Positions 2,600 through 38,281 of a stretch of DNA of 59,441 nt are shown one piece after another (position 1 is the stretch's first letter; each line of letters starts with the position of its first letter). Source of the stretch: a virus. Taxonomy: Duplodnaviria; Caudoviricetes. The stretch covers positions 1 through 59,441 of IMG/VR virus record IMGVR_UViG_3300030104_000577; one strand, written 5' to 3'. Made by a program: the position numbers and the translations under genes. The notes beneath the pieces were generated by a model. The model saw only the letters and a program-made list of their open reading frames with translations. It did no database searches and was not told the DNA's origin.

Positions 2600-3496
2600 T
2601 TAAGCTACTTCTTCCCAATTAGGGTTTTGATCATCGTTAACAGAAGACCAACTAGGTGTTTGACTATCATTTACTCCTGTCCAGCTTGGATCTTGACTAT
2701 CATCTATTAACCCCCAAACATTCACCGAAGGAACTCCTGCTGTGCCTTCTAGTCCTGTTAAAGTTACTGTTGCTTTAGATATTGTTGTTACTGTTCCTAA
2801 AGATGCTGTGGCTGATTGTTCTGTAACATGAACTGTCATGCCCAAAGCTATCGATACAGTACCTAATGCACTTGTTGCTGCCTGTCCTGTTGAAGTTACA
2901 TTTGCTTTACCTACAGTTGTTACTGTTCCTAGAGATGTTGTAGCCGAAACACTAGAAATATCTACATCCGCTTTAGCAACAGGAGTAACTGTACCTAATG
3001 CACTTGTTGCTGCTAATCCAGAAACTGTAACTTGTGCGTTGTGGTGAACTGTGACAGATCCAAGACTTGCTGTTACACTTAACCCTGTTACAGAGACATT
3101 AGCCTCACCATCTACATCTACAGAAACCGAACCAACTGTTCCAACAGCACTCGGTAAAACAGCAACAGCATCACCATTAACACCAACTCCAGAAACTGTT
3201 CCAGTTGCGCTAACTCCTGTTAGTGTTACGTTTGCTACACCTACTACACTTAATGCGCCAACAGCACTTGTGGCTGATTGTCCAGTAGGAACTACATTAG
3301 CTTCTGCAACTATACTTACAGATCCTACAGCAGAAGTAGCAACTAAAGTAGAAGGCGTTGCGTTAGCTCCAGCGTCAACGCTGACAGAACCTAACGCAGA
3401 AGTAGCAGCTACACCAGATATGGTGAAGCTTATAGGTACGGAAGCGGGTTGACCCCAAGGACCATCACCCCAGCCAGCTCGACCCCAGCCTGACAT
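2600..3496 (-). CDS. Virion structural protein with V/T/S/G-rich repeats
   Basis: Repeated VTGxxATxxLGxVTV units, Trp-rich termini, structural module context. Confidence 0.6.
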   Translation of the reverse strand: MSGWGRAGWGDGPWGQPASVPISFTISGVAATSALGSVSVDAGANATPSTLVATSAVGSVSIVAEANVVPTGQSATSAVGALSVVGVANVTLTGVSATGTVSGVGVNGDAVAVLPSAVGTVGSVSVDVDGEANVSVTGLSVTASLGSVTVHHNAQVTVSGLAATSALGTVTPVAKADVDISSVSATTSLGTVTTVGKANVTSTGQAATSALGTVSIALGMTVHVTEQSATASLGTVTTISKATVTLTGLEGTAGVPSVNVWGLIDDSQDPSWTGVNDSQTPSWSSVNDDQNPNWEEVA

Positions 3497-3502
3497 TTTA
3501 GG

Positions 3503-3931
3503 TTAAGCTATTCTAATAATAGCTGTACTTGCTGCTGCCGCAGGGAAGACTATTGTAAAGTCTCCTGCTGTAGAAGTTTTATCTCCACCAAAATCAATGG
3601 TTGCTACAGATACATCAGAATTTGTATCATTATAAATTAAGCATCCTCTGGCGGTAACAGTAGCTGTACCAAATGTTAAATCTGCAAAATCGGTAAAACC
3701 TGTTGTTCCACCAGAAGTAGGGTTTATATTAGTCAGAGCTGCACCGCCAGCTGTGTAATTAGTACCAGTAACTTGATTAGTGGTGGTATATGCTGTTGTT
3801 GCTGCACCCATAGTAGCAGAACTTGTGTAGAGAGCTAGTTTAAAAGAGTTGCCTCCAGAAGCTAAAAAATTATGTTTTGCTTCTAATAGTTCCTTTTTAA
3901 AACTTGTAGTTAATGTTGATGTTATAGCCAT
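3503..3931 (-). CDS. Virion structural protein
   Basis: FKLALYTS motif, beta-rich T/A/G composition, context. Confidence 0.6.
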   Translation of the reverse strand: MAITSTLTTSFKKELLEAKHNFLASGGNSFKLALYTSSATMGAATTAYTTTNQVTGTNYTAGGAALTNINPTSGGTTGFTDFADLTFGTATVTARGCLIYNDTNSDVSVATIDFGGDKTSTAGDFTIVFPAAAASTAIIRIA

Positions 3932-10654: not shown

Positions 10655-11122
10655 TTACACGGGAGTTGTTACATCTTCTGGGTTATTTATTACGGCTAAT
10701 ATTTCATCATCGTTCAATAAACGTAAGTCGCCACCCTCTATCTTAATCCTTGCGCCTGCGTATCTGCCAAAGATAACCCAATCTTTTTCTTGACACCATG
10801 CACCGTTAGGGAACTTATTTTTATCTTTATATGCGTCTGGACCAACACTGACTACATAACCTACATTAGTCGACAATCTTTCTTTTTCAACATAGGATTC
10901 TGCTAAAGCTATACCGCCTTTAGTCATAGCTTTTTGACTAAACGGTAGTATTAGTATTCTATAACCAGTCGGAGACGGTAACTGTTCTAGTAAACTCTCG
11001 TCTTCTTGTACTGATTCAGGGGATATTATAGTTTCTTTCTTTTTAAACCGACTTGAATTATCTACGTGGTCTGGTATAGAATTATCTGCGGGATTGTTTC
11101 CCAAAACTTCCTTTACTGACAT
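10655..11122 (-). CDS. groES: Co-chaperonin GroES-like protein
   Basis: PTGYRILI, TKGGI, VVSVGP, VIFGRYAG, LLNDDEILAVI Cpn10 motifs. Confidence 0.8.
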   Translation of the reverse strand: MSVKEVLGNNPADNSIPDHVDNSSRFKKKETIISPESVQEDESLLEQLPSPTGYRILILPFSQKAMTKGGIALAESYVEKERLSTNVGYVVSVGPDAYKDKNKFPNGAWCQEKDWVIFGRYAGARIKIEGGDLRLLNDDEILAVINNPEDVTTPV

Positions 11123-11315
11123 TATCTTCCTCACTACTCTTTTTTTGCAGGTCTAATAATATTCTCTCGGCTGAGCTTAGACCTGTTAACTCACCGAGAA
11201 CTTTTTGATATGCTGCCCAATCTTGAATACCACCAGTCGTGATAACTTCTTCTAGATCAGACTTCCTTAAACGGAGTTCTTTTAAAAATTTTTCTATTAA
11301 ATATATAGGATCCAT
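11082..11315 (-). CDS. Hypothetical protein
   Basis: DWAAYQKVLGELTGL helix-hairpin; TAATG coupling to upstream gene. Confidence 0.6.
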   Translation of the reverse strand: MDPIYLIEKFLKELRLRKSDLEEVITTGGIQDWAAYQKVLGELTGLSSAERILLDLQKKSSEEDNVSKGSFGKQSRR

Positions 11316-12667: not shown

Positions 12668-15026
12668 CTTTCAATATCTGACCGTATGTTTTCGTTGATT
12701 CATTTTGAGCTTTCATCATTGATTCTTCTCTATCCTGCGCAACTTTCATTTCAGCTATTGCTTCTTGTGATTCTATTCTAGCTAAATCTACCTCGCTTCG
12801 TAAAGCGTCTGATTGTGCTCTTTGAGCGATTTCTTCTTTCTTAATTTCTACTACAGGATCTACTTGAGCATTTTGCATAGCTTGTGCCATAGCTTGTGCT
12901 TGACCAGTAACTTGTTGTGTTGCTGTTGCTGCAGCTAGTGCTATCTCATTCATGACTTCTGGAGGCATCTGACCTTCTTCCATCTGTGGTAGTTTTTGAC
13001 CCATGGCTTGCTCAATTTGAATCTTATACAACATTGCTTGATGCTCTTGTATGTTTGCAGATATAGCTGATGCTGCTACTGGATTCTGTTGTGACATTGG
13101 GTTTTGTAAAAACGCTGAATGAGAAGTTATGTATGCCTCGTGATTTTGAAACTCAAAAGCTCTTATAGGTTGTCCCATCATTGCTGCCTGCTGTTCACTT
13201 ATAGGATCTCTAGGTGAAACTTCTTGTGGCTCAGGGAGCAGTAATTCTATATTTTTAATCTCTAACGCTTCGTACATTCTTTTATACGCTTCGCGTAGGT
13301 TGTGTATTTCAGGTGCTGATTGTGCCATCTGTAATTCTTGTTGAGCAATCATAACTCTTTGAGACATACTGAATATGTTAGGGTCACTTACAGGAATAAT
13401 ATCTACCCTATCGTCAAAGTCTGTTTGTTTTATTGATTGATCTGCACCAGAAACTTGGTATGGATATATAGGTGGTAGTGACCTAGCAAACACATTCGCT
13501 AGTAACCTGAACTCTTTTTTCTGAGCAAAGTGAAGTCGTTTATGTATGGCGGACATTACTTTTGTACCACGTTCCAACATAGCTACCGTAGTTCCTACTG
13601 GAAGTTGTTGACTGCCGATATCTCCTACTTGCATGTCTGCTATACTTGCGAATCTTCTACCTGAGTCTATAAGTATACCGAGTAACTGACTTAATACTGC
13701 GCTTGGCTCTTTATACGGTAAAGGCATCAATGAGTCACGGATTGTACCTCCTGGAACATCGACATCTCTAAATTCTCCAGGACGTAAAGGTTCATCTTCG
13801 CCCTGTACTCTCATACCGCGTGCTTTAAACCCTGCTGGTAGGTTTGCGAGTGTACCAGCGTCAATAAGCTGTCTTAGTAATGAAGTTGCGGACTTAGTTA
13901 GCCCTCCAATCATGTGAATTAACCCAAAACCATAAAAACCGAGTCCTGGAAGGAACTTATAGTGTATGAAATACTCTTTTTTACGGAATAATTCGTCGTT
14001 TAAGTTCCAGTTTCTTCTCATTGACAGTATCTTACCGCTGTCTTCAAGGATTGTTACTATATAAGGTACAGCGTAATCGAACTCATCTATGCCTTCTAAC
14101 TCTAAATTTACGTGTATTTCTAGTAGTTTATACTCATTATAATCGCTAGACGGCTTACTTAGCCCTTGTAACTCGTCCATTTTCTCTTTTGCTTCGTCTA
14201 AATCAATTTCTCCAGGATTTCCTATCGGAATATCGCGAAAAGTACCGTTTATTTGCATTTTTCGGATGTCATTTCCTGTCATATTGATGGTATGAGTGAT
14301 TCTAGGGCTAGTTTCTAGGTTTGTAGTGTCGTAACTGACTACTAAATCCTCTGCTTTGACAAAACTAGAGGTAGCACGGTTTAAAAGTGAGTCAAAATAC
14401 ACTTTTTTGAACGCAGATCCTGCTAAAGGAAGGTAAAATAGCAAACTGTCCATGTCTGGATCGTATTCTTGCATAACTTCCGTGATCTGGTAGTTCATAA
14501 ACTCCTTAACTCGGGCACATTGTGCCATAACTTCGGGATTTTCCGCACCAACGGTCTGAGTTTTCACTGGACCTTGTGCTGGAAGGAGTTCTTTATATGC
14601 TTGTGCCTGAAACTGTGTTGCTGCTTCTGCTAAAAGTGGGTGTGTTACACCACTAGCTCCTGGGAATGGTTGTTCTCTTTCTTCTGATTTAATACCGAGT
14701 AGATCTAAACCGTCAGAAAATGTTTCTAACCACTCTTCTCTTGATTGTTTATCTTCTTCATACTGAGAGCAAAGTTCACTACTAATCTCGTCTAGTTGAT
14801 CTTCGTCTAAAACTTCTGTTAAATTGACATTGTGCTCTGTCATGATAGTTTCTTCAGACATAGCAACTGGTGTTAATTCACCGTTAGGAGATATTTGAAA
14901 CTCAGCGGTGTTCTCACCCTGAATATTCATTTCCTCTGGAAGTTCTACTGTGATTTCTTCCTCTGGTGATGGTTGTTGTAAAGGATCTACACCTTTTGAT
15001 GGATATCTTTGTACTTCAATCGCCAT
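12630..15026 (-). CDS. Portal protein
   Basis: 798 aa after TerL; PFPGASGVTHPLL, LPLAGSAFKKVY, LIDAGTLANL motifs; Q-rich C-terminal barrel. Confidence 0.85.
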   Translation of the reverse strand: MAIEVQRYPSKGVDPLQQPSPEEEITVELPEEMNIQGENTAEFQISPNGELTPVAMSEETIMTEHNVNLTEVLDEDQLDEISSELCSQYEEDKQSREEWLETFSDGLDLLGIKSEEREQPFPGASGVTHPLLAEAATQFQAQAYKELLPAQGPVKTQTVGAENPEVMAQCARVKEFMNYQITEVMQEYDPDMDSLLFYLPLAGSAFKKVYFDSLLNRATSSFVKAEDLVVSYDTTNLETSPRITHTINMTGNDIRKMQINGTFRDIPIGNPGEIDLDEAKEKMDELQGLSKPSSDYNEYKLLEIHVNLELEGIDEFDYAVPYIVTILEDSGKILSMRRNWNLNDELFRKKEYFIHYKFLPGLGFYGFGLIHMIGGLTKSATSLLRQLIDAGTLANLPAGFKARGMRVQGEDEPLRPGEFRDVDVPGGTIRDSLMPLPYKEPSAVLSQLLGILIDSGRRFASIADMQVGDIGSQQLPVGTTVAMLERGTKVMSAIHKRLHFAQKKEFRLLANVFARSLPPIYPYQVSGADQSIKQTDFDDRVDIIPVSDPNIFSMSQRVMIAQQELQMAQSAPEIHNLREAYKRMYEALEIKNIELLLPEPQEVSPRDPISEQQAAMMGQPIRAFEFQNHEAYITSHSAFLQNPMSQQNPVAASAISANIQEHQAMLYKIQIEQAMGQKLPQMEEGQMPPEVMNEIALAAATATQQVTGQAQAMAQAMQNAQVDPVVEIKKEEIAQRAQSDALRSEVDLARIESQEAIAEMKVAQDREESMMKAQNESTKTYGQILKDVRSSDTKTKGS

Positions 15027-17704: not shown

Positions 17705-17966
17705 CACCACCACCAGCCAACAGCCAGCCAACAGCGAGCCTGAGCGACCACCCAGCCAGCCCGAGCCACCAGCGAGCCACAGCCAGCCACCACCGAGCAC
17801 TGCCCAGCCAGCCACAGCCAGCCACCAGTGACCCCGACCCACCAGCCAGTGGTCTCGAGCATGAGCACCAGTTCGACTACGAGCACCAGCCCGAGCACCA
17901 GTCCGAGCACCAGTTCGACTACGAGCACCAGTCCGACTACGAGCACCAGCACCAGCCCGAGCACCA
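17705..17966. repeat. GC-rich strand-biased repeat tract (CAGC/CCAC units then GAGCACCA repeats) with Chi-like octamers
   Basis: Seven GAGCACCA units at 17863-17966; CCACCAGC at 17710, 17766, 17839; only 2 T in 17705-17828. Confidence 0.9.
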
Positions 17967-18376: not shown

Positions 18377-18531
18377 ACGCACAGAAAACAGTTCAGATCA
18401 GATTATGAACTACTTTATATATAGAACTAGACTTAGTATATAGGTCTGTTCTGATCTGAAAAAGCAGATATGGTTTACAGAGCAATATGGTTTACAGAGA
18501 ATCGTTCAGATCTGAATATTAGGGGTAAAGG

Positions 18532-21718: not shown

Positions 21719-22009
21719 TTATATCTCGTAATATTCTGCTGCTCGTTTTAGGTTTTCTAAAGAGACTTGCATCAATGCGTCCTCTGGACTTTCCTTAATC
21801 CAGTAATAACCAAACTCTGACACATCGTCGTTGTTTTTAGGTTTTAGAACAAAATAACCTAAATCACGCACATATATGATCGAGGTGTTGCCAGCTTCAA
21901 ACTTTTCCCCTTCGTCTAGTTCAGTCAGGTGGTGTTCTAATTCATCACGCAGTAGTTTATGCTCTTCCTTCCGTGAATGTAGTGGGTGACGATATATACC
22001 TTTACCCAT
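21719..22009 (-). CDS. Hypothetical early protein
   Basis: GGAGG RBS, overlap with upstream stop. Confidence 0.6.
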   Translation of the reverse strand: MGKGIYRHPLHSRKEEHKLLRDELEHHLTELDEGEKFEAGNTSIIYVRDLGYFVLKPKNNDDVSEFGYYWIKESPEDALMQVSLENLKRAAEYYEI

Positions 22010-22574
22010 GTTTCACCTCCTTTGGGATATCCCACATAGTCTGCGAAGTGAGTACACTATACTCACCGTTCGCTTTCATAGGTAAAACTTCTTTACTGTC
22101 TTTGACCCAGTTTTCAGGTAGTCGCCAGCTGTCATACCATGGAGGCAGTTCGATATTCTTTAGTGCCTGACCTAAAGGTGTGAAACAGGTATGAAAGTAA
22201 GCCTCCTGATCATACCTAAAAAAGCCATTATTCTGCTGGTCACTAAGAGACACGAACCAACCTTTAGCATCTATCTGCGGTTTATCAATAAACAAGTAAA
22301 CATACTCGATGTGCAGAGGGTCGAGAGCATTCATAAACTCGTTCAAGTTTTCGTACTTCTCTGGTTCTTGTTTTCTAGTGTCTGACTCTGCTGTTGTAAG
22401 TTTTAAACTAGATATGTATCCTGTGTTCACGAGTCTTCTAACTTTTATTATATCAGCATAATAACCGTACAACATAAAACCATTGTGCTGTAAGTAGCCA
22501 TCATAATGACAATAAGATGCGGTAATACCGTCCTCGTCCCATGAGCTGTATCCTATGTAACTACGAGTTCCCAT
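22002..22574 (-). CDS. Conserved phage hypothetical protein
   Basis: MGTRSYIG...YCHYDGY...EYVYLF pattern common in phage early regions. Confidence 0.65.
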   Translation of the reverse strand: MGTRSYIGYSSWDEDGITASYCHYDGYLQHNGFMLYGYYADIIKVRRLVNTGYISSLKLTTAESDTRKQEPEKYENLNEFMNALDPLHIEYVYLFIDKPQIDAKGWFVSLSDQQNNGFFRYDQEAYFHTCFTPLGQALKNIELPPWYDSWRLPENWVKDSKEVLPMKANGEYSVLTSQTMWDIPKEVKHG

Positions 22575-22575
22575 A

Positions 22576-22779
22576 TTACGCCACCTTGACGATTATATCG
22601 TCTTTCATAGTAACTTTAGCAAACCACTCGCGACCACCTTGTAAGTGTGGACGATGGGCACCGATAAAACTGCCTGTAGATTTGTACTCATCACCAAAGA
22701 AAGATGTCTCTGTGTAGTTGAGTCGTTGACCTACTGCTTCTTTAAGTTTTTTCTTGCTTGTATAGTTTAATAACATCAT
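22576..22779 (-). CDS. Conserved small phage protein
   Basis: AAGGAG RBS; YxSKKxLKExVG...ETSFFGxEY...WFAxVTM motif. Confidence 0.65.
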   Translation of the reverse strand: MMLLNYTSKKKLKEAVGQRLNYTETSFFGDEYKSTGSFIGAHRPHLQGGREWFAKVTMKDDIIVKVA

Positions 22780-22835
22780 ACGCTGGTTCTCCTTATATTT
22801 ATTTAGCGTATATTAATAATACTAATGATTATTAC

Positions 22836-22846
22836 ATCACCTAGCA
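22836..22846 (-). promoter_or_regulatory. Repeated early-region motif TGCTAGGTGAT
   Basis: Third identical copy. Confidence 0.6.
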
Positions 22847-22856
22847 TGATGCGTAA

Positions 22857-22997
22857 TCAATTATCGTCATGTGTTCCGTAGAAATATATTCCTAAAACAA
22901 CGGACATGGCGAGAGCTAACAGTAAAGAATCGTTCAAGCTTGCTTGTATAGCCAGTTCGATCAAGTATTGTTCCTCTTCGTGTATATAATTACTCAC
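22857..22997 (-). CDS. Small membrane protein
   Basis: GTG start overlapping upstream stop; C-terminal hydrophobic helix. Confidence 0.4.
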   Translation of the reverse strand: MSNYIHEEEQYLIELAIQASLNDSLLLALAMSVVLGIYFYGTHDDN

Positions 22998-23166
22998 CGT
23001 TCTTTGCCATAGTGTATAGTCTAGCAGGTATAACCACATTTACATTACAGTCACTACAGCACCTACCGTTTTTCACTGGTCGTGCATTATGACCTTGATC
23101 CCAGATAATTTCACCACCATCTGTTTTTTGTTCCTCTATATCGTTCTTACATATACTACATTTCAT
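22990..23166 (-). CDS. Small Zn-finger protein (58 aa, absent from ORF track)
   Basis: Manual translation MKCSICKNDIEEQKTDGGEIIWDQGHNARPVKNGRCCSDCNVNVVIPARLYTMAKNGE; GAGGT RBS. Confidence 0.75.
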   Translation of the reverse strand: MKCSICKNDIEEQKTDGGEIIWDQGHNARPVKNGRCCSDCNVNVVIPARLYTMAKNGE

Positions 23167-23380
23167 TTGCTTTACCTCTCTTAGTTTTTTCTAGAAATAC
23201 TTTTTGACTACTGATTCTTCTAGGGTTGTATAAAATGTGTTCTGGTATGTCTTGAACTATTTTGAAAACTTTCTTTAACTGTTTAAACTGTGCATCTTTT
23301 CTCTCACCAGCTATCAAGTATACATAACGATCGAGCTCTCTACAAAGTGCTTGCTTCAAACTAACTGGTTGCTTCATCAT
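23156..23380 (-). CDS. Hypothetical protein
   Basis: GAGGT RBS, overlapping neighbours. Confidence 0.55.
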   Translation of the reverse strand: MMKQPVSLKQALCRELDRYVYLIAGERKDAQFKQLKKVFKIVQDIPEHILYNPRRISSQKVFLEKTKRGKANEM

Positions 23381-23546
23381 CTAACCTCTGTTCTGCGTCG
23401 TGGTATTGAAGCTGTAGTTCTTGCTGATTCAATGAGTTGATTTCTCGTCTTTGTTTAGCTTTTACCTCATCGAGTACTCTGTGCGCTGTAGCTACATTCT
23501 CGATAGCTCTATATAATTCTAAAGTTTGCTCTTTGGTAAGTGACAT
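23361..23546 (-). CDS. Hypothetical coiled-coil protein
   Basis: AGGAGG RBS. Confidence 0.6.
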   Translation of the reverse strand: MSLTKEQTLELYRAIENVATAHRVLDEVKAKQRREINSLNQQELQLQYHDAEQRLDDEATS

Positions 23547-23624
23547 GATGCCTCCTAAGGTTTAGTTATTAATAAAGTATAAGTATATAACTAGAATAAT
23601 AGATCATTAAGGATAATGTTAAGA

Positions 23625-23760
23625 TAACCCTGACCACGCAAGGGAGGCTGCAGAATGATAGGACGTGATCAGGGTTAAAAGAAAAACCTGATGAGGGTAG
23701 GAGAATACTATCGTAAAGTCTTAAATCAATAACAATAGTCAAATGAACACCCCCATCAGG
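23625..23760 (-). ncRNA. Tandem hairpin RNAs displaying anti-RBS sequences (putative antisense sRNAs)
   Basis: Two 12-14-bp stems, complete on the minus strand only through G-U pairs; loops contain anti-AUG and anti-SD sequences. Confidence 0.6.
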
Positions 23761-23767
23761 CAACCAA

Positions 23768-24253
23768 CTATTTATAGAGCATAAACTCCTTATCAAGATC
23801 GTACCTGATATCTTTAGCTTCTACTCTAAGAGTTGCTAGAGCTTCCCTTACTGTCATACCATCTAAGTCGCTATGACGCTCTGCGTTCTCTTTAGACCTA
23901 GCCATTTTTGCTGGGTTATTCACTATAACCCGATCCATGTCTAGACCTTTTACTGCTACTTTATCTTTCGATTTTTTTACAGCGGTTTTAAGGTTAGTCT
24001 TCGTTACTTTTAACTTCCCTATCTTAGCTGTATTTTTAAGTGCTGCTTGTTTCATTGCACCCATTTGCTTACCCTCCTCTGGCTCTCGCCAAGTTATATT
24101 ACGGTTGTTGTACATATGGAAGACTCGTTTAACCTCACCTTCCTCTTGATACTCAGCGGTAAATTGTACGGAGAGCAGAGATTTGACGGTAGCTTCATGC
24201 CATAAATCTTTGTGACATGTTACTAATACTTTATCTGTTCTCGGTGCTCTCAT
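23768..24253 (-). CDS. Early protein whose C-terminal part is paralog 3 of the 18.1/18.6-kb proteins; probable internal start at 24064
   Basis: KMARSKENAERHSDLDGMTVREAL...KDIRYDLDKEF aligns with paralogs; GAGGAG RBS precedes internal MGAMKQ. Confidence 0.7.
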   Translation of the reverse strand: MRAPRTDKVLVTCHKDLWHEATVKSLLSVQFTAEYQEEGEVKRVFHMYNNRNITWREPEEGKQMGAMKQAALKNTAKIGKLKVTKTNLKTAVKKSKDKVAVKGLDMDRVIVNNPAKMARSKENAERHSDLDGMTVREALATLRVEAKDIRYDLDKEFMLYK

Positions 24254-24317
24254 AAAATTTATCCTAAGTATTAAAAGTATATAAACTAATATAACGAAAG
24301 TATAGGAAGATCACTAT

Positions 24318-24935
24318 TTAATTAACAGGACCGTTACTGAGGTGTTCGGACGGCTCCATATATCCTTTGTAGTCTTGACCGCTATCCTCAAAATACCACT
24401 CAAAATGTACAGGCATGTTGAATGTTTTAGTGTAGACATATAACAAATCATATATATGTTGAGGCTCAGACCAAACAGTATCGAAGGTGTAAACCAGCTC
24501 AGCGTATCTACCAGCATTGTGCCCATAGTTATCATCTGGCTGTTCTAACGCTTCGTTATATGTATAACTAGAGTCATAGGCATTGAGCATTACACCCCAG
24601 TTTTGTACGCACCAGTCATGCCGAGACAGATAAGTATGTTCACGAGTAAGTCTTCGTATGGTGAATGGATCGAGACAGTTTTGTTTTACCCAATCTTCAG
24701 TTAGCTTATAATCGTGTTCTAGCCCACACTGGTCATAACGCAATCTAGAGTAGTAAAAGTTTTCCTTACCCACCGCAAAAAGTTCTAAGTCTTTAATATC
24801 TTCTGGTATAGGTTTGATACTATTAAAGTCAAAAGCACCTTCTTCGCCTTGTAGATAGTTTATTATTTTTTGTAAGTTGGCTCCTGTGGATCTAAAAGCT
24901 ACAACATTTCTACACTCGTAGACTCGAGTTTTCAT
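24318..24935 (-). CDS. DUF1281/YubB ferredoxin-like domain protein
   Basis: FDFNSIKPIPE, DWCVQNWG, FDTVWSEP motifs. Confidence 0.65.
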   Translation of the reverse strand: MKTRVYECRNVVAFRSTGANLQKIINYLQGEEGAFDFNSIKPIPEDIKDLELFAVGKENFYYSRLRYDQCGLEHDYKLTEDWVKQNCLDPFTIRRLTREHTYLSRHDWCVQNWGVMLNAYDSSYTYNEALEQPDDNYGHNAGRYAELVYTFDTVWSEPQHIYDLLYVYTKTFNMPVHFEWYFEDSGQDYKGYMEPSEHLSNGPVN

Positions 24936-24990
24936 AGATATCTTCCTTAATTTAACTAACGCTTATATAATAACTTAGACTATATAGATT

Positions 24991-25215
24991 TTAAGCATTA
25001 TCTTTTATGATAACGTCTTCTAAAACACCGTGCTTGTTTATCTTGTATGAATGTGATTCACGAGGTGCTTGTAGACTCTCATAATTCTTTCTTAAATATT
25101 TTTGGTATTTATTGTAATACTCTTGCTCGGTGGGATATGGTTTTTCAAAGTTTGCTTCACGCTCGGCACAATTTTTATAGTACATTCTGCGGACATAGAT
25201 TTCAAAGTTGTTCAA
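24991..25215 (-). CDS. Hypothetical protein
   Basis: AGGAGG RBS before TTG. Confidence 0.6.
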   Translation of the reverse strand: MNNFEIYVRRMYYKNCAEREANFEKPYPTEQEYYNKYQKYLRKNYESLQAPRESHSYKINKHGVLEDVIIKDNA

Positions 25216-25236
25216 GTTACCTCCTAATTAAAAATA

Positions 25237-25600
25237 TGGCTTGTCATCTCCGACCTATTTTAATGACTAACTTAGCTTACCTTCATACGAGCGATCAACC
25301 TCAACGAGTCTGTAAGTACCACAAAACAAAAAAGCGAGAGAGGCTTGGAGTCTGGCTACACTCAGGAATTTACTTTAACTCTCAACTTAGCACGATTCGG
25401 ATAAACTTGATTAGGGAGTCTCCGAACTTTGTCCTTTTATTACCTCAGTATGTACCTCTCTCTTTTACTCAAAGGGACTGCGTTAACCCCGTATGTCCCT
25501 AAGCAGATTAAGGAGCTCTGTAAACTGGCTGCTGGGTTCTGTTTACTTTCGAGATCTCTAGCCACCGAGCACTCCTCAATCCTAGGTTATTACTAACCTT
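25237..25600 (-). ncRNA. Large structured non-coding RNA of unknown class
   Basis: About 360 nt without a credible ORF, higher GC than flanks, at least five helices, GUAA tetraloop, stem plus U-tract at 25328. Confidence 0.6.
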
Positions 25601-25644
25601 AACTATATTAAAACTTAGAACTATAAGAATAAAAAGGATTATCC

Positions 25645-26127
25645 TTAATCAGTTTTATCTTCATAGTCCCCTTCTATAAGTGTTCCTGCAGGTAATATAC
25701 CACCTGTTTCATGATATATCTCTTTCATTCTTGCAAGTATTTGATCTTTATTCATAGTCTCTACTTTGTTCACAAGTATCTCACTACGATTCACATACAA
25801 TCCTGCTGCTTTACCTCTGTTAACCTCGGCTGTAACTGCAGCAGACCACGCACCATTACGCATAGCACCGTCACGAATATCCTTGAGATCTGTTAGATGT
25901 GTAGACAGATCAACTACCGCCTTATCTGCTGCTTTGGCTTGTAGTTCTTGTATGCGTTTCTTGACTACAGGGTTTTTATCACTAGACAACACAGTACCAG
26001 CTCTACCAGCATTTTTATCACTGTATCCTGCTTTCTTCGCAGCGTCTTTTTTCTTCATACCTTTCGCTACGTTCTGAGCAAACTTTTCTTGCTTCGGTGT
26101 GAGTTTCTTACTCACGCTATCCTCCAC
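25645..26127 (-). CDS. terS: Terminase small subunit
   Basis: LTPKQEKFA...AAKKAGYS...NPVVKKRIQEL HTH signature; A.V.RGKAAGLY. Confidence 0.75.
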   Translation of the reverse strand: MEDSVSKKLTPKQEKFAQNVAKGMKKKDAAKKAGYSDKNAGRAGTVLSSDKNPVVKKRIQELQAKAADKAVVDLSTHLTDLKDIRDGAMRNGAWSAAVTAEVNRGKAAGLYVNRSEILVNKVETMNKDQILARMKEIYHETGGILPAGTLIEGDYEDKTD

Positions 26128-26348
26128 AATCTTAATAAAGTTCTATCATCTTCTGATACTTTTCTGCTAGTAAACTTTTTACTGTTTCTTGTGCCATAAT
26201 TAGAAGCTGCAACTCTTAACCTTTGTGCTTCTTCAAAATCATACAACATGTCGATACTGTCGCCTATTCCCATTTTATGGAAATTATACTTATTGTTTCT
26301 AGGAGTATTCCTCTCAGGCATAGGAATATCTTTATTTATTTCAAACAT
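26112..26348 (-). CDS. Small putative DNA-binding protein
   Basis: I.KDIPMP...KYNF..MGIGDS...LRLWRIA pattern. Confidence 0.6.
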   Translation of the reverse strand: MFEINKDIPMPERNTPRNNKYNFHKMGIGDSIDMLYDFEEAQRLRVAASNYGTRNSKKFTSRKVSEDDRTLLRLWRIA

Positions 26349-26366
26349 TTACATCACCTATCTAGT

Positions 26367-26783
26367 TTAATTGAAGTCTTTTCGACTAATTCCTGGAAAA
26401 TGTTTTTCTAATTGTTTATCGTCACTTTTTACTTTTCTATATTTTTTAGGAAAATATACATTTAATTCATAAATAGCTTCATTTATATCCATCCAATCGT
26501 CCACAGGTTTATGTCCTAAGAAATGAGTGTAACCACCTGAGTAACTATCTGTATACACTTTTGCTTGTTCTAGTATCTCATAAGGAACATGTGCTGTTTC
26601 TACTGTGCCTATGTATTGTCTTTGTTCAGGAGAAACAGGGTCATTGTGTTTCTTCCCCTGTCCATAATCCATTTTATACTGCTCTCCTTGCCACGCACTA
26701 TTACACTTCCTACTACAAAATTTTCTCCTTTGACCATACAAGTCTTTACCGCAGTATTTACATTTGTAATAAGTTTTATCCAT
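26367..26783 (-). CDS. Hypothetical protein with N-terminal Zn ribbon
   Basis: CKYCG...KFCSRKC. Confidence 0.6.
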   Translation of the reverse strand: MDKTYYKCKYCGKDLYGQRRKFCSRKCNSAWQGEQYKMDYGQGKKHNDPVSPEQRQYIGTVETAHVPYEILEQAKVYTDSYSGGYTHFLGHKPVDDWMDINEAIYELNVYFPKKYRKVKSDDKQLEKHFPGISRKDFN

Positions 26784-26895
26784 AGTATATAAAAGTATAA
26801 CCTACAACATACTCTTATAAAAGGATAATGCCCAGCCTGCACATTTTAATCCTATCCTATCCCGACTGAGCAAAAGACAGGTGTGGGATGCGGTA

Positions 26896-38196: not shown

Positions 38197-38219
38197 CTAA
38201 ACGCTCCCTTTGCGTAATT

Positions 38220-38274
38220 TATCGAGACCCTCTACTCTCCTTTACCTAGAAAAGAAAGTAAAGGATCGTCGATA
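38220..38274 (-). promoter_or_regulatory. Long intergenic hairpin between SSB and primase genes (attenuator/processing site)
   Basis: UAUCGA..GAUCCUUUACUUUCUUU / AAAGGAGAGUAGAGGGUC.UCGAUA with several G-U pairs on minus strand. Confidence 0.55.
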
Positions 38275-38281
38275 GTTTAAG

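Follow-up and report, generated by a model that had tools for sequence, protein, structure and literature searches.

Tandem hairpins behind a small phage gene as plausible terminators ahead of a restart promoter

Introduction

The virus record IMGVR_UViG_3300030104_000577 of IMG/VR (Duplodnaviria; Caudoviricetes) comprises 59,441 bases, is complete or nearly so (99%) and has a G+C content of about 38%. We analyzed it at its full length and refer to it here as the window. The minus strand carries almost all of its open reading frames (ORFs). Between two of these minus-strand ORFs, one of 161 aa (p161) and one of 61 aa, lies a gap of 221 nt (23547-23767) that contains two large hairpins, hairpin 1 and hairpin 2, whose loops read as complements of a Shine-Dalgarno sequence (SD), a spacer and a start codon. 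A sequence-only reading of this DNA took the hairpins for a mini-array of processed antisense RNAs, with a constant scaffold and variable guides aimed at host or competitor mRNAs. What, then, are these hairpins for? On balance, we favor the reading that the two hairpins are 3'-end (terminator) structures of a single-gene p161 unit, lying ahead of a restart promoter. The contents of their loops are in part left unexplained by this reading.

Results

Two hairpins are formed by the sense-strand RNA

Folded as the minus-strand RNA, the gap reached a minimum free energy (MFE) of -61.2 kcal/mol, compared with a mean of -40.5 kcal/mol (standard deviation 3.88) for 200 shuffles, none of which was as good (z = -5.34). 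The plus-strand RNA reached -44.4 kcal/mol (z = -1.69), and 8 of 200 shuffles were as good. Because of this difference between the two folds, full pairing can be assigned to the minus strand only, where it is achieved via G-U pairs, just as the sequence-only reading had described it. The CCUGAU.../...RUCAGG base said to be common to the two hairpins is likewise present in the window. A pattern search of the window for CCUGAU-N10-40-AUCAGG gave no matches, and the hairpin region is single-copy within it. The complementarity that had been read from the loops is also exact: the joined sides of the hairpin-1 internal loop are the complement of the 17-mer quoted in that reading, and the complement of the hairpin-2 loop is an SD-N7-AUG-AUA-GGA string, matched exactly on the plus strand at 23642-23663. 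The coordinates of all parts are given in Table 1.

Relatives of the locus were gathered as syntenic loci via the flanking proteins, one through p161 itself and 76 through the DUF932 protein. A p161-family profile added 30 loci in viral contigs and the best 80 of 111 in metagenome contigs. Loci are cited below by L number where they have to be told apart. The long form of the gene, about 160 aa, occurs in three lineages, namely that of the window (L111 is nearly identical to it, and L112 and L113 are 94% identical), L002 and L004; most relatives encode a version of about 100 aa.

Between the gaps of L112 and the window, 6 of 224 positions differ. Two of them make up a double change in the hairpin-1 stem, from U-A to C-G (23755/23692); a further one turns C-G into U-G in the hairpin-2 stem, and one lies inside the hairpin-2 loop, the supposed guide; the remaining two differences are in the promoter or leader part. 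Among the window, L112, L117 and L116, 5 of 11 predicted hairpin-1 pairs have changes on both sides. In L002, hairpin 1 has a wholly different stem and neither the inner stem nor the U-tract, and its loop retains GUUCAU.UG and AUUCUCCU. Hairpin 2 of L002 retains its stem with G-U changes and carries a different loop of 17 nt, in which there is no anti-SD word and no CAU. The stems of the two L002 hairpins are unrelated to each other, and the shared CCUGAU/RUCAGG base was not found there. L004 has a hairpin 1 with another new stem, the same AUUCUCCUGU and no U-tract, and it has no hairpin 2. Together, the stem changes in L112, L002 and L004 and the 5 co-changing pairs among 11 indicate that the hairpins are real, selected structures of the sense-strand RNA.

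The junction resembles terminators followed by a promoter

Read in the sense direction, the p161 stop codon is followed by 9 nt, hairpin 1, UUUUUCUUUU, hairpin 2, a promoter-like box, and the SD and AUG of the 61-aa ORF. The U-tract, the downstream promoter-like box and the AGGAGG SD of the next gene had been absent from the sequence-only reading. Because of the U-tract and the promoter box, a terminator-then-promoter junction is the simplest reading of this layout. Both hairpins are stable, G+C-rich stem-loops of the kind found in intrinsic terminators. Hairpin 1 with its U-tract would act as an intrinsic (Rho-independent) terminator, and hairpin 2 may be a second, weaker terminator or a hairpin that protects the 3' end. 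The phage promoter box behind the hairpins would then restart transcription for the 61-aa gene. Since p161 has a similar promoter-like box of its own upstream, its unit appears to be monocistronic, and the order in full would be promoter, p161, terminator or terminators, promoter and next genes. We infer that transcription terminates at the hairpins.

A box much like the one behind hairpin 2 precedes several more of the window's early genes (repeat family D14). A sigma-70-like match was found at 23622-23593; with 22 such matches found and 22.3 expected, the region shows no enrichment.

Directly behind the stop codon of the p161-family gene, nearly all relatives have a strong hairpin, and a U-tract follows 28 of the 44 distinct hairpin sequences from IMG/VR and metagenome relatives. 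Textbook terminators are common among them (for example, the L037, L006, L063, L047, L099 and L104 types), and many of the hairpins have a sequence-conserved outer stem in common (alignment A3). When hairpin 2 was aligned by hand with the L006-type terminator, most stem positions agreed, several pairs were flipped, and CCCUUG was found as a common loop end. On this hand alignment, homology of hairpin 2 with the L006-type terminator is likely but unproven, and hairpin 2 may descend from the terminator hairpin that most relatives have at the same place.

A number of observations weigh against this reading. Hairpin 1, with 32 unpaired bases among its 76 nt, is an atypical terminator. Consensus scanners look for compact hairpins with short loops (3-8 nt), and the two window hairpins have 32 and 23 unpaired nt. 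A consensus terminator scan returned only a 5-bp sub-hairpin (23643-23628) and nothing for hairpin 1. Hairpin 2 is followed by no more than a weak U-tail. The hairpin-1 homologues of L002 and L004 are without a U-tract, which means that the function conserved in hairpin 1 cannot be termination. We built a covariance model, R1, of the common GCCCAGU.../...ACUGGGC terminator hairpin from alignment A3; its 4 matches in the window at E<=10 include none at 23625-23677. Other clear terminators of the window have ordinary loops, such as the UUCG loop at about 7.69 kb.

What the loops contain counts on the same side. On the sense strand of 78 loci and the window, AUUCUCCU occurs nine times, and eight of these occurrences, in four lineages, are in the hairpin behind a p161-family gene (the window, L002 and L005, which are the same contig, L004, L054, L055, L056 and L064); L072 has one occurrence elsewhere. 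Anti-SD 4-mers were present in 6 of 7 hairpins with at least 12 unpaired bases versus 1 of 37 with fewer, in a table with a single hairpin for each representative, from which window hairpin 1, L117 hairpin 1 and the L107, L133, L143 and L118 types were left out; most of the omitted hairpins also have an anti-SD word. In a control scan of loci L003-L078 and the window, the loop held an anti-SD 4-mer in 3 of 11 terminator-like hairpins behind p161-family genes versus 4 of 81 elsewhere, the latter set including many weak coding-region hairpins. Oversized loops with anti-SD words are also found on unrelated stems in the L081 group (two copies, conserved among L081, L118, L119 and L120), the L107 group (two copies), L133, L143 and L047b. 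These C/U-rich words are unpaired and occupy conserved loop positions, as do those of the staphylococcal RNAIII and Rsa RNAs. In hairpin 1, AUUCUCCU is kept while the stem co-varies, and a conserved loop on a co-varying stem is what one would expect if something reads the loop. The terminator reading leaves the preference of large loops at the p161 locus for pyrimidine-rich, anti-SD-like words unexplained. Of the display of anti-SD and anti-AUG that the sequence-only reading had expected in homologues, the anti-SD part recurs in several lineages, and an anti-AUG at a start-like distance is confined to the set of the window, L002 and L004. The resemblance of the loops to the complement of a ribosome-binding site (RBS) probably reflects partly descent and partly this unexplained preference, rather than a guide function.

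Searches for targets of the loops

The sequence-only reading had found no start site in the window matching either of its target strings, and we obtained the same result. The 8-mer complement of the hairpin-1 word occurs in the window only on the hairpin's own plus strand, and both full strings, allowing up to 3 mismatches, gave nothing in the window beyond their own plus-strand complements. When 84 translation initiation regions (TIRs) of the window were paired with four loop segments, shuffled loops were as good in 20/200, 84/200, 130/200 and 20/200 cases. The L002 (complete) and L004 (80%) records gave self-matches only. A bipartite scan of the 13,480 ATG contexts in all phage loci gathered gave a top score of -20.8, compared with -17.9 +/- 1.6 for shuffles, and 2 of 60 shuffles were as good.

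The 20-mer of the hairpin-2 target had no match in IMG/VR viral contigs. In 596 Gb of prokaryote genomes it was found in two contigs of Lachnospiraceae metagenome-assembled genomes (MAGs) only, and in the one contig that we examined (L191) it is located where a short ORF begins. Both matches were taken as chance: Lachnospiraceae are not marine, and by our own estimate a search for 20 specified bases over about 1.2e12 positions should give about one match. Thus, neither the window, the L002 and L004 records, the 13,480 start contexts nor the prokaryote genomes yielded an above-chance target of the kind originally proposed in host or competitor mRNAs.

Two individual candidates were set aside. 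When the entire sense strand was scanned, hairpin 1 had its best bipartite partner in an internal, ribosome-like site of p161 (24079; -17.8), with runners-up at -17.6 and -17.0. The equivalent site was outscored at 2847 of 14,996 positions in L002 and at 650 of 14,996 in L004, and the pairing was rejected as chance. The TIR of a PD-(D/E)XK-type nuclease gene, AGGAGAAUCAAAUGAUC (L051 2551-2567; L052 2536-2552), is identical to the joined hairpin-1 target at 16 of 17 positions. It ranks just 6th-8th of the 13,480 contexts, within reach of the shuffles, and is probably a chance match as well. The window's own nuclease orthologue (start 31274) has a different TIR, and the loops of L002 and L004 match no nuclease TIR variant (19 distinct TIR contexts).

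In L004, a 9-mer complementary to the hairpin-1 loop, AGGAGAAUC, occurs twice on the sense strand of the 15-kb locus (11260-11275 and 12810-12828). One copy is inside the p161-like gene and the other is at the TIR of a 105-aa gene (12826), with 11 bp of perfect complementarity. A second pairing of this type was not seen in the window.

p161 and the features of the junction

p161 matched no Pfam or PHROG family. Its C-terminal 60 aa or so form a conserved domain in the alignment of homologues (A2), with no fold family assigned. In the AlphaFold model, the predicted local distance difference test score (pLDDT) is about 90 for residues 100-161 only, and a Foldseek search of the model against the PDB gave no match at E<=0.001, so the model provides no hint of an RNA-binding role.

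An SD-like GAGGAGG lies inside p161 (24055-24085, minus strand), 5-8 nt before an in-frame AUG (Met63-65). This site is the exact start of the homologues of about 100 aa in other phages, and the internal SD-AUG is kept in all long-form lineages (L002 at about 3165-3195, L004 at about 11065-11105), which suggests a second, short p161 isoform made by internal initiation. In the short p161-family genes (L082, L131, L133, L135, L155, L169, L179 and others), whose proteins are just 40-60% identical, the TIR AAGAAAGGAGAAAC..AUG is almost invariant and the GCCCAGU.../...ACUGGGC terminator hairpin is conserved in sequence. As judged from these alignments, the conservation of TIR and hairpin exceeds the needs of a terminator.

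Table 1. Positions of the hairpins, their parts and the flanking features in the window
Feature	Position	Strand	Basis and remarks
161-aa ORF p161, gene whose transcript the hairpins close	23768-24253	minus	ORF list
Hairpin 1	23686-23761	minus	Fold; 76 nt, 32 unpaired; -29.8 kcal/mol alone
Hairpin 1, outer stem (14 bp)	23748-23761 with 23686-23699	minus	Fold
Hairpin 1, internal loop, 5' side	23740-23747	minus	8 nt; contains GUUCAUUUG
Hairpin 1, inner stem (8 bp)	23732-23739 with 23707-23714	minus	Fold; 17-nt apical loop
Hairpin 1, internal loop, 3' side	23700-23706	minus	Fold
Hairpin 1, conserved anti-SD word AUUCUCCU	23699-23706	minus	Plus strand reads AGGAGAAT
U-tract UUUUUCUUUU directly 3' of hairpin 1	23677-23686	minus	Sequence; hairpin-plus-U-tract scan
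Hairpin 2	23625-23677	minus	Fold; 53 nt, 15-bp stem; -21.8 kcal/mol
Hairpin 2, loop (23 nt)	23640-23662	minus	Fold
Weak tail UUAUCUUAA after hairpin 2		minus	Falls short of a U-tract
Promoter-like box, AUUAUCCU..AUC element then TATATACTTATA-type -10	23575-23622	minus	Block conserved in window, L002 and L004
SD AGGAGG of 61-aa ORF	23551-23556	minus	
AUG of 61-aa ORF	23544-23546	minus	
61-aa ORF, first gene of next unit	23361-23546	minus	Homologues in L002 and L004, same order

Genome context and other elements

The window encodes a family-A DNA polymerase, a DUF932 protein and a small-terminase-like protein. It has no DNA match among isolated phages, and because the nearest DUF932 proteins of isolated phages are less than 40% identical, a host could not be inferred. 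The sequencing runs that hold the window DNA are labeled as marine or estuary metagenome. A profile of the gene neighboring the hairpins found no relatives in 185,579 prokaryote species (one genome each). Rfam gave no matches over the whole window at the gathering score and none for 23500-23820 at E<=5, and the L002 and L004 gaps gave chance-level rows only. A scan of the window for tRNA and tmRNA was also empty. Among the assembled contigs of two metatranscriptome libraries none covers 23547-23767, which, for contigs, cannot show absence.

In the same libraries, from one study, the only part of 22000-26500 present in contigs is a 430-nt gap at 25216-25644 on the minus strand (25257-25570 at depth 21; 25430-25600 at depth 24). 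It contains two hairpins and an element of about 130 nt, element X, which is closed by a GAGAGAGG/CCUCUCUC helix and carries a U-tract; Rfam gave no match for it. Element X lies directly 3' of hairpin 1 in both L004 (11440-11571) and L002 (about 3545-3660); the L004 copy shows 86% identity along 135 nt, and the L002 copy is more diverged. Among the three copies, 5 of 21 predicted pairs have changes on both sides; the z score of the fold is just -1.33. Element X is a candidate for an abundant phage RNA that has moved between intergenic sites.

Three further features were seen in the window. Behind the DUF932 gene (26830-26871, minus strand), a hairpin with a GCUCAGUC/GGCUGGGC stem and a purine-rich loop of 26 nt with three GGAU repeats is followed by AUUAUCCUUUU, which resembles the box behind hairpin 2; it is a weak R1 match (12.1 bits, E 0.84). 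The segment 17500-19500 has few long ORFs, with tandem 12/18-nt repeats at 17720-17960 and a 35-nt direct repeat at 18447 and 19001. A very stable hairpin without a U-tract lies between two genes at 38197-38281 (minus strand; -33.5 kcal/mol for the gap).

Discussion

The anti-SD words raise the question of whether the junction is an anti-SD regulatory 3' untranslated region (3'UTR), in which AUUCUCCU of hairpin 1 and GCCUCCC of hairpin 2 would be seeds held open in loops. We give this a modest chance. In a cis version, read-through transcripts would be silenced and the next gene translated only from its own promoter, by the logic of T4 gene e; in a trans version, the 3'UTR would contain a terminator-embedded RNA resembling the C-rich loops of RNAIII and the Rsa RNAs or the icaR 3'UTR. 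Precedents are found in reports on the Rsa and RNAIII loops (PMC2790875) and on T4 gene e (PMC3014915). The recurrence of the words in large loops of several lineages with unrelated stems, and the conserved loop on the co-varying hairpin-1 stem, are consistent with it. Of 21 TIRs, the one downstream of the hairpins in the window gave the strongest pairing with the window's hairpin-2 loop (-12.9 kcal/mol), a value matched by 14 of 300 shuffles. In the L107 group, an RBS containing AGGAGAAU, the complement of the loop word AUUCUCCU, follows the hairpin after 10 nt, and a duplex of up to 10 bp with one wobble can be drawn between them by hand. However, lineage-specific co-variation with the TIR of the next gene was not seen: among 21 TIRs, the lineage's own ranks 13 in L002, 10 in L004, 7 in L081, 6 in L107, 4 in L047b and 12 in L135. 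The TIR of p161 itself does not co-vary either (rank 14 of 16 in the window, at -5.4 kcal/mol, 16 of 16 in L002 and 12 of 16 in L004), and in the MFE structure of the entire gap the next gene's SD is unpaired. A neutral source of CUCC-type words is also conceivable, in G-rich 5' arms, C-rich 3' arms and duplications of arms, such as the direct repeat of L133. It is doubtful, then, that in an uncultured marine phage group the 3' end of a small early gene serves as a regulatory RNA, whose oversized hairpin loops expose one or two anti-SD words and block ribosome loading in cis or in trans. Equally tentative is the view of such an RNA as the phage counterpart of the staphylococcal C-rich-loop RNAs, with a bipartite form in the window that could read SD and start codon together.

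We consider it very unlikely that the hairpins are processed, trans-acting antisense RNAs of a mini-array with a constant scaffold and variable bipartite guides against SD-spacer-AUG, as the sequence-only reading had it. The exact SD-spacer-AUG complements in the window, the hairpin-1 loops of L002 and L004, which also read as anti-(SD-N8/11-AUG), and the 16 of 17 matching positions in the nuclease TIR of L051 and L052 would fit that model. Yet the scaffold is not constant, as L002 has unrelated stems and L004 has no hairpin 2, and the supposed guide of hairpin 1 is the very part that relatives conserve, the stem being the part that varies. In hairpin 2, the anti-AUG part belongs to a loop expansion specific to the lineage and already differs in L112, and the L002 loop shows neither an anti-SD word nor an anti-AUG. 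The target searches above are no more favorable, with L002 and L004 loops that match none of the 19 nuclease TIR contexts, a best bipartite score that shuffles attain, and a hairpin-2 20-mer that is absent from viral contigs and at chance level in prokaryotes.

The same letters could instead be read on the plus strand, as real ribosome sites on an antisense transcript that would serve mini-ORFs or act as ribosome decoys. At hairpin 2 this strand has AAGGGAGG-N7-AUG with a 7-codon ORF. At hairpin 1 it has AGGAG, a 33-nt hairpin and CAA-AUG with a 13-codon ORF, and the intervening stem would join SD and AUG into a split site of the T4 gene 25/38 type. A promoter-like match lies at 23569-23597 on this strand, and L002 and L004 have an SD plus an AUG at 11 and 8 nt, respectively. 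Such a feature is nevertheless hardly credible: the plus-strand fold is no better than shuffles (z = -1.69), the G-U pairs and the substitutions that create them favor the minus strand, the plus-strand mini-ORFs of 13, 31 and 6 codons are not conserved, and hairpin 2 of L002 has no plus-strand AUG. In addition, nearly all genes are on the minus strand, and promoter-like matches are at chance level.

If the terminator reading holds, the gap is an ordinary terminator-promoter junction, and it carries a caution, as a large loop with CUCC and CAU will always resemble an "anti-RBS". If the regulatory reading were true, the locus would be the first example of anti-SD loop regulators in the 3' ends of marine-phage mRNAs, and the roughly ten hairpin types at one syntenic site would form a comparative set for the study of translation gating between transcription units.

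Several known systems resemble the junction in part. The C4 antisense RNA of phages P1 and P7 is likewise a phage RNA with two loop segments complementary to a ribosome-binding region. The target of C4 lies directly downstream in the same operon, as an evident duplicate of the complementary segments, whereas no complementary ribosome-site target was found in the window or in the L002 and L004 records. In T4 genes e, soc, 49 and I-TevI, the SD is reported to be sequestered in read-through transcripts only, as late transcripts start inside the structure (PMC3014915). The junction is similar in having the anti-SD words upstream of a promoter and the SD downstream, so that both are present only in read-through transcripts. 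The T4 structure, however, is one local helix, whereas the parts in the window are 85-190 nt apart and would need a loop-to-SD contact; no co-variation with the SD was found in relatives, and the MFE structure of the gap leaves the SD free.

An anti-SD motif is described in the 3'UTR of icaR mRNA (PMC3868564). The junction is similar in that the untranslated 3' portion of an mRNA contains a C-rich word resembling an anti-SD. The icaR motif reportedly pairs with the 5'UTR of icaR itself, whereas the window loops pair poorly with the annotated TIR of p161 (-5.4 kcal/mol, rank 14/16). In Staphylococcus aureus, two reports describe unpaired UCCC motifs of Rsa RNAs and three RNAIII hairpin loops that bind SDs (PMC2790875), and RsaE as one of the Rsa RNAs with C-rich loops (PMC2837412). 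The window hairpins share with these RNAs the pyrimidine-rich anti-SD words, unpaired in hairpin loops and present in several copies per RNA, and the words are in the most conserved part while the helices vary. By contrast, RNAIII and the Rsa RNAs are separate small RNA genes with mapped ends, proven targets and a known host, and the window hairpins are an mRNA 3' region known from sequence alone.

Compared with intrinsic terminators, the window hairpins are very large (76 and 53 nt), the U-tail of hairpin 2 is poor, and the L002 and L004 homologues have no U-tract. They resemble such terminators in the G+C-rich stem followed by a U-tract at hairpin 1 and in being placed, on the coding strand, within a few bases of the preceding stop codon. 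Canonical examples stand at the homologous site of relatives, and here a tandem pair precedes a restart promoter.

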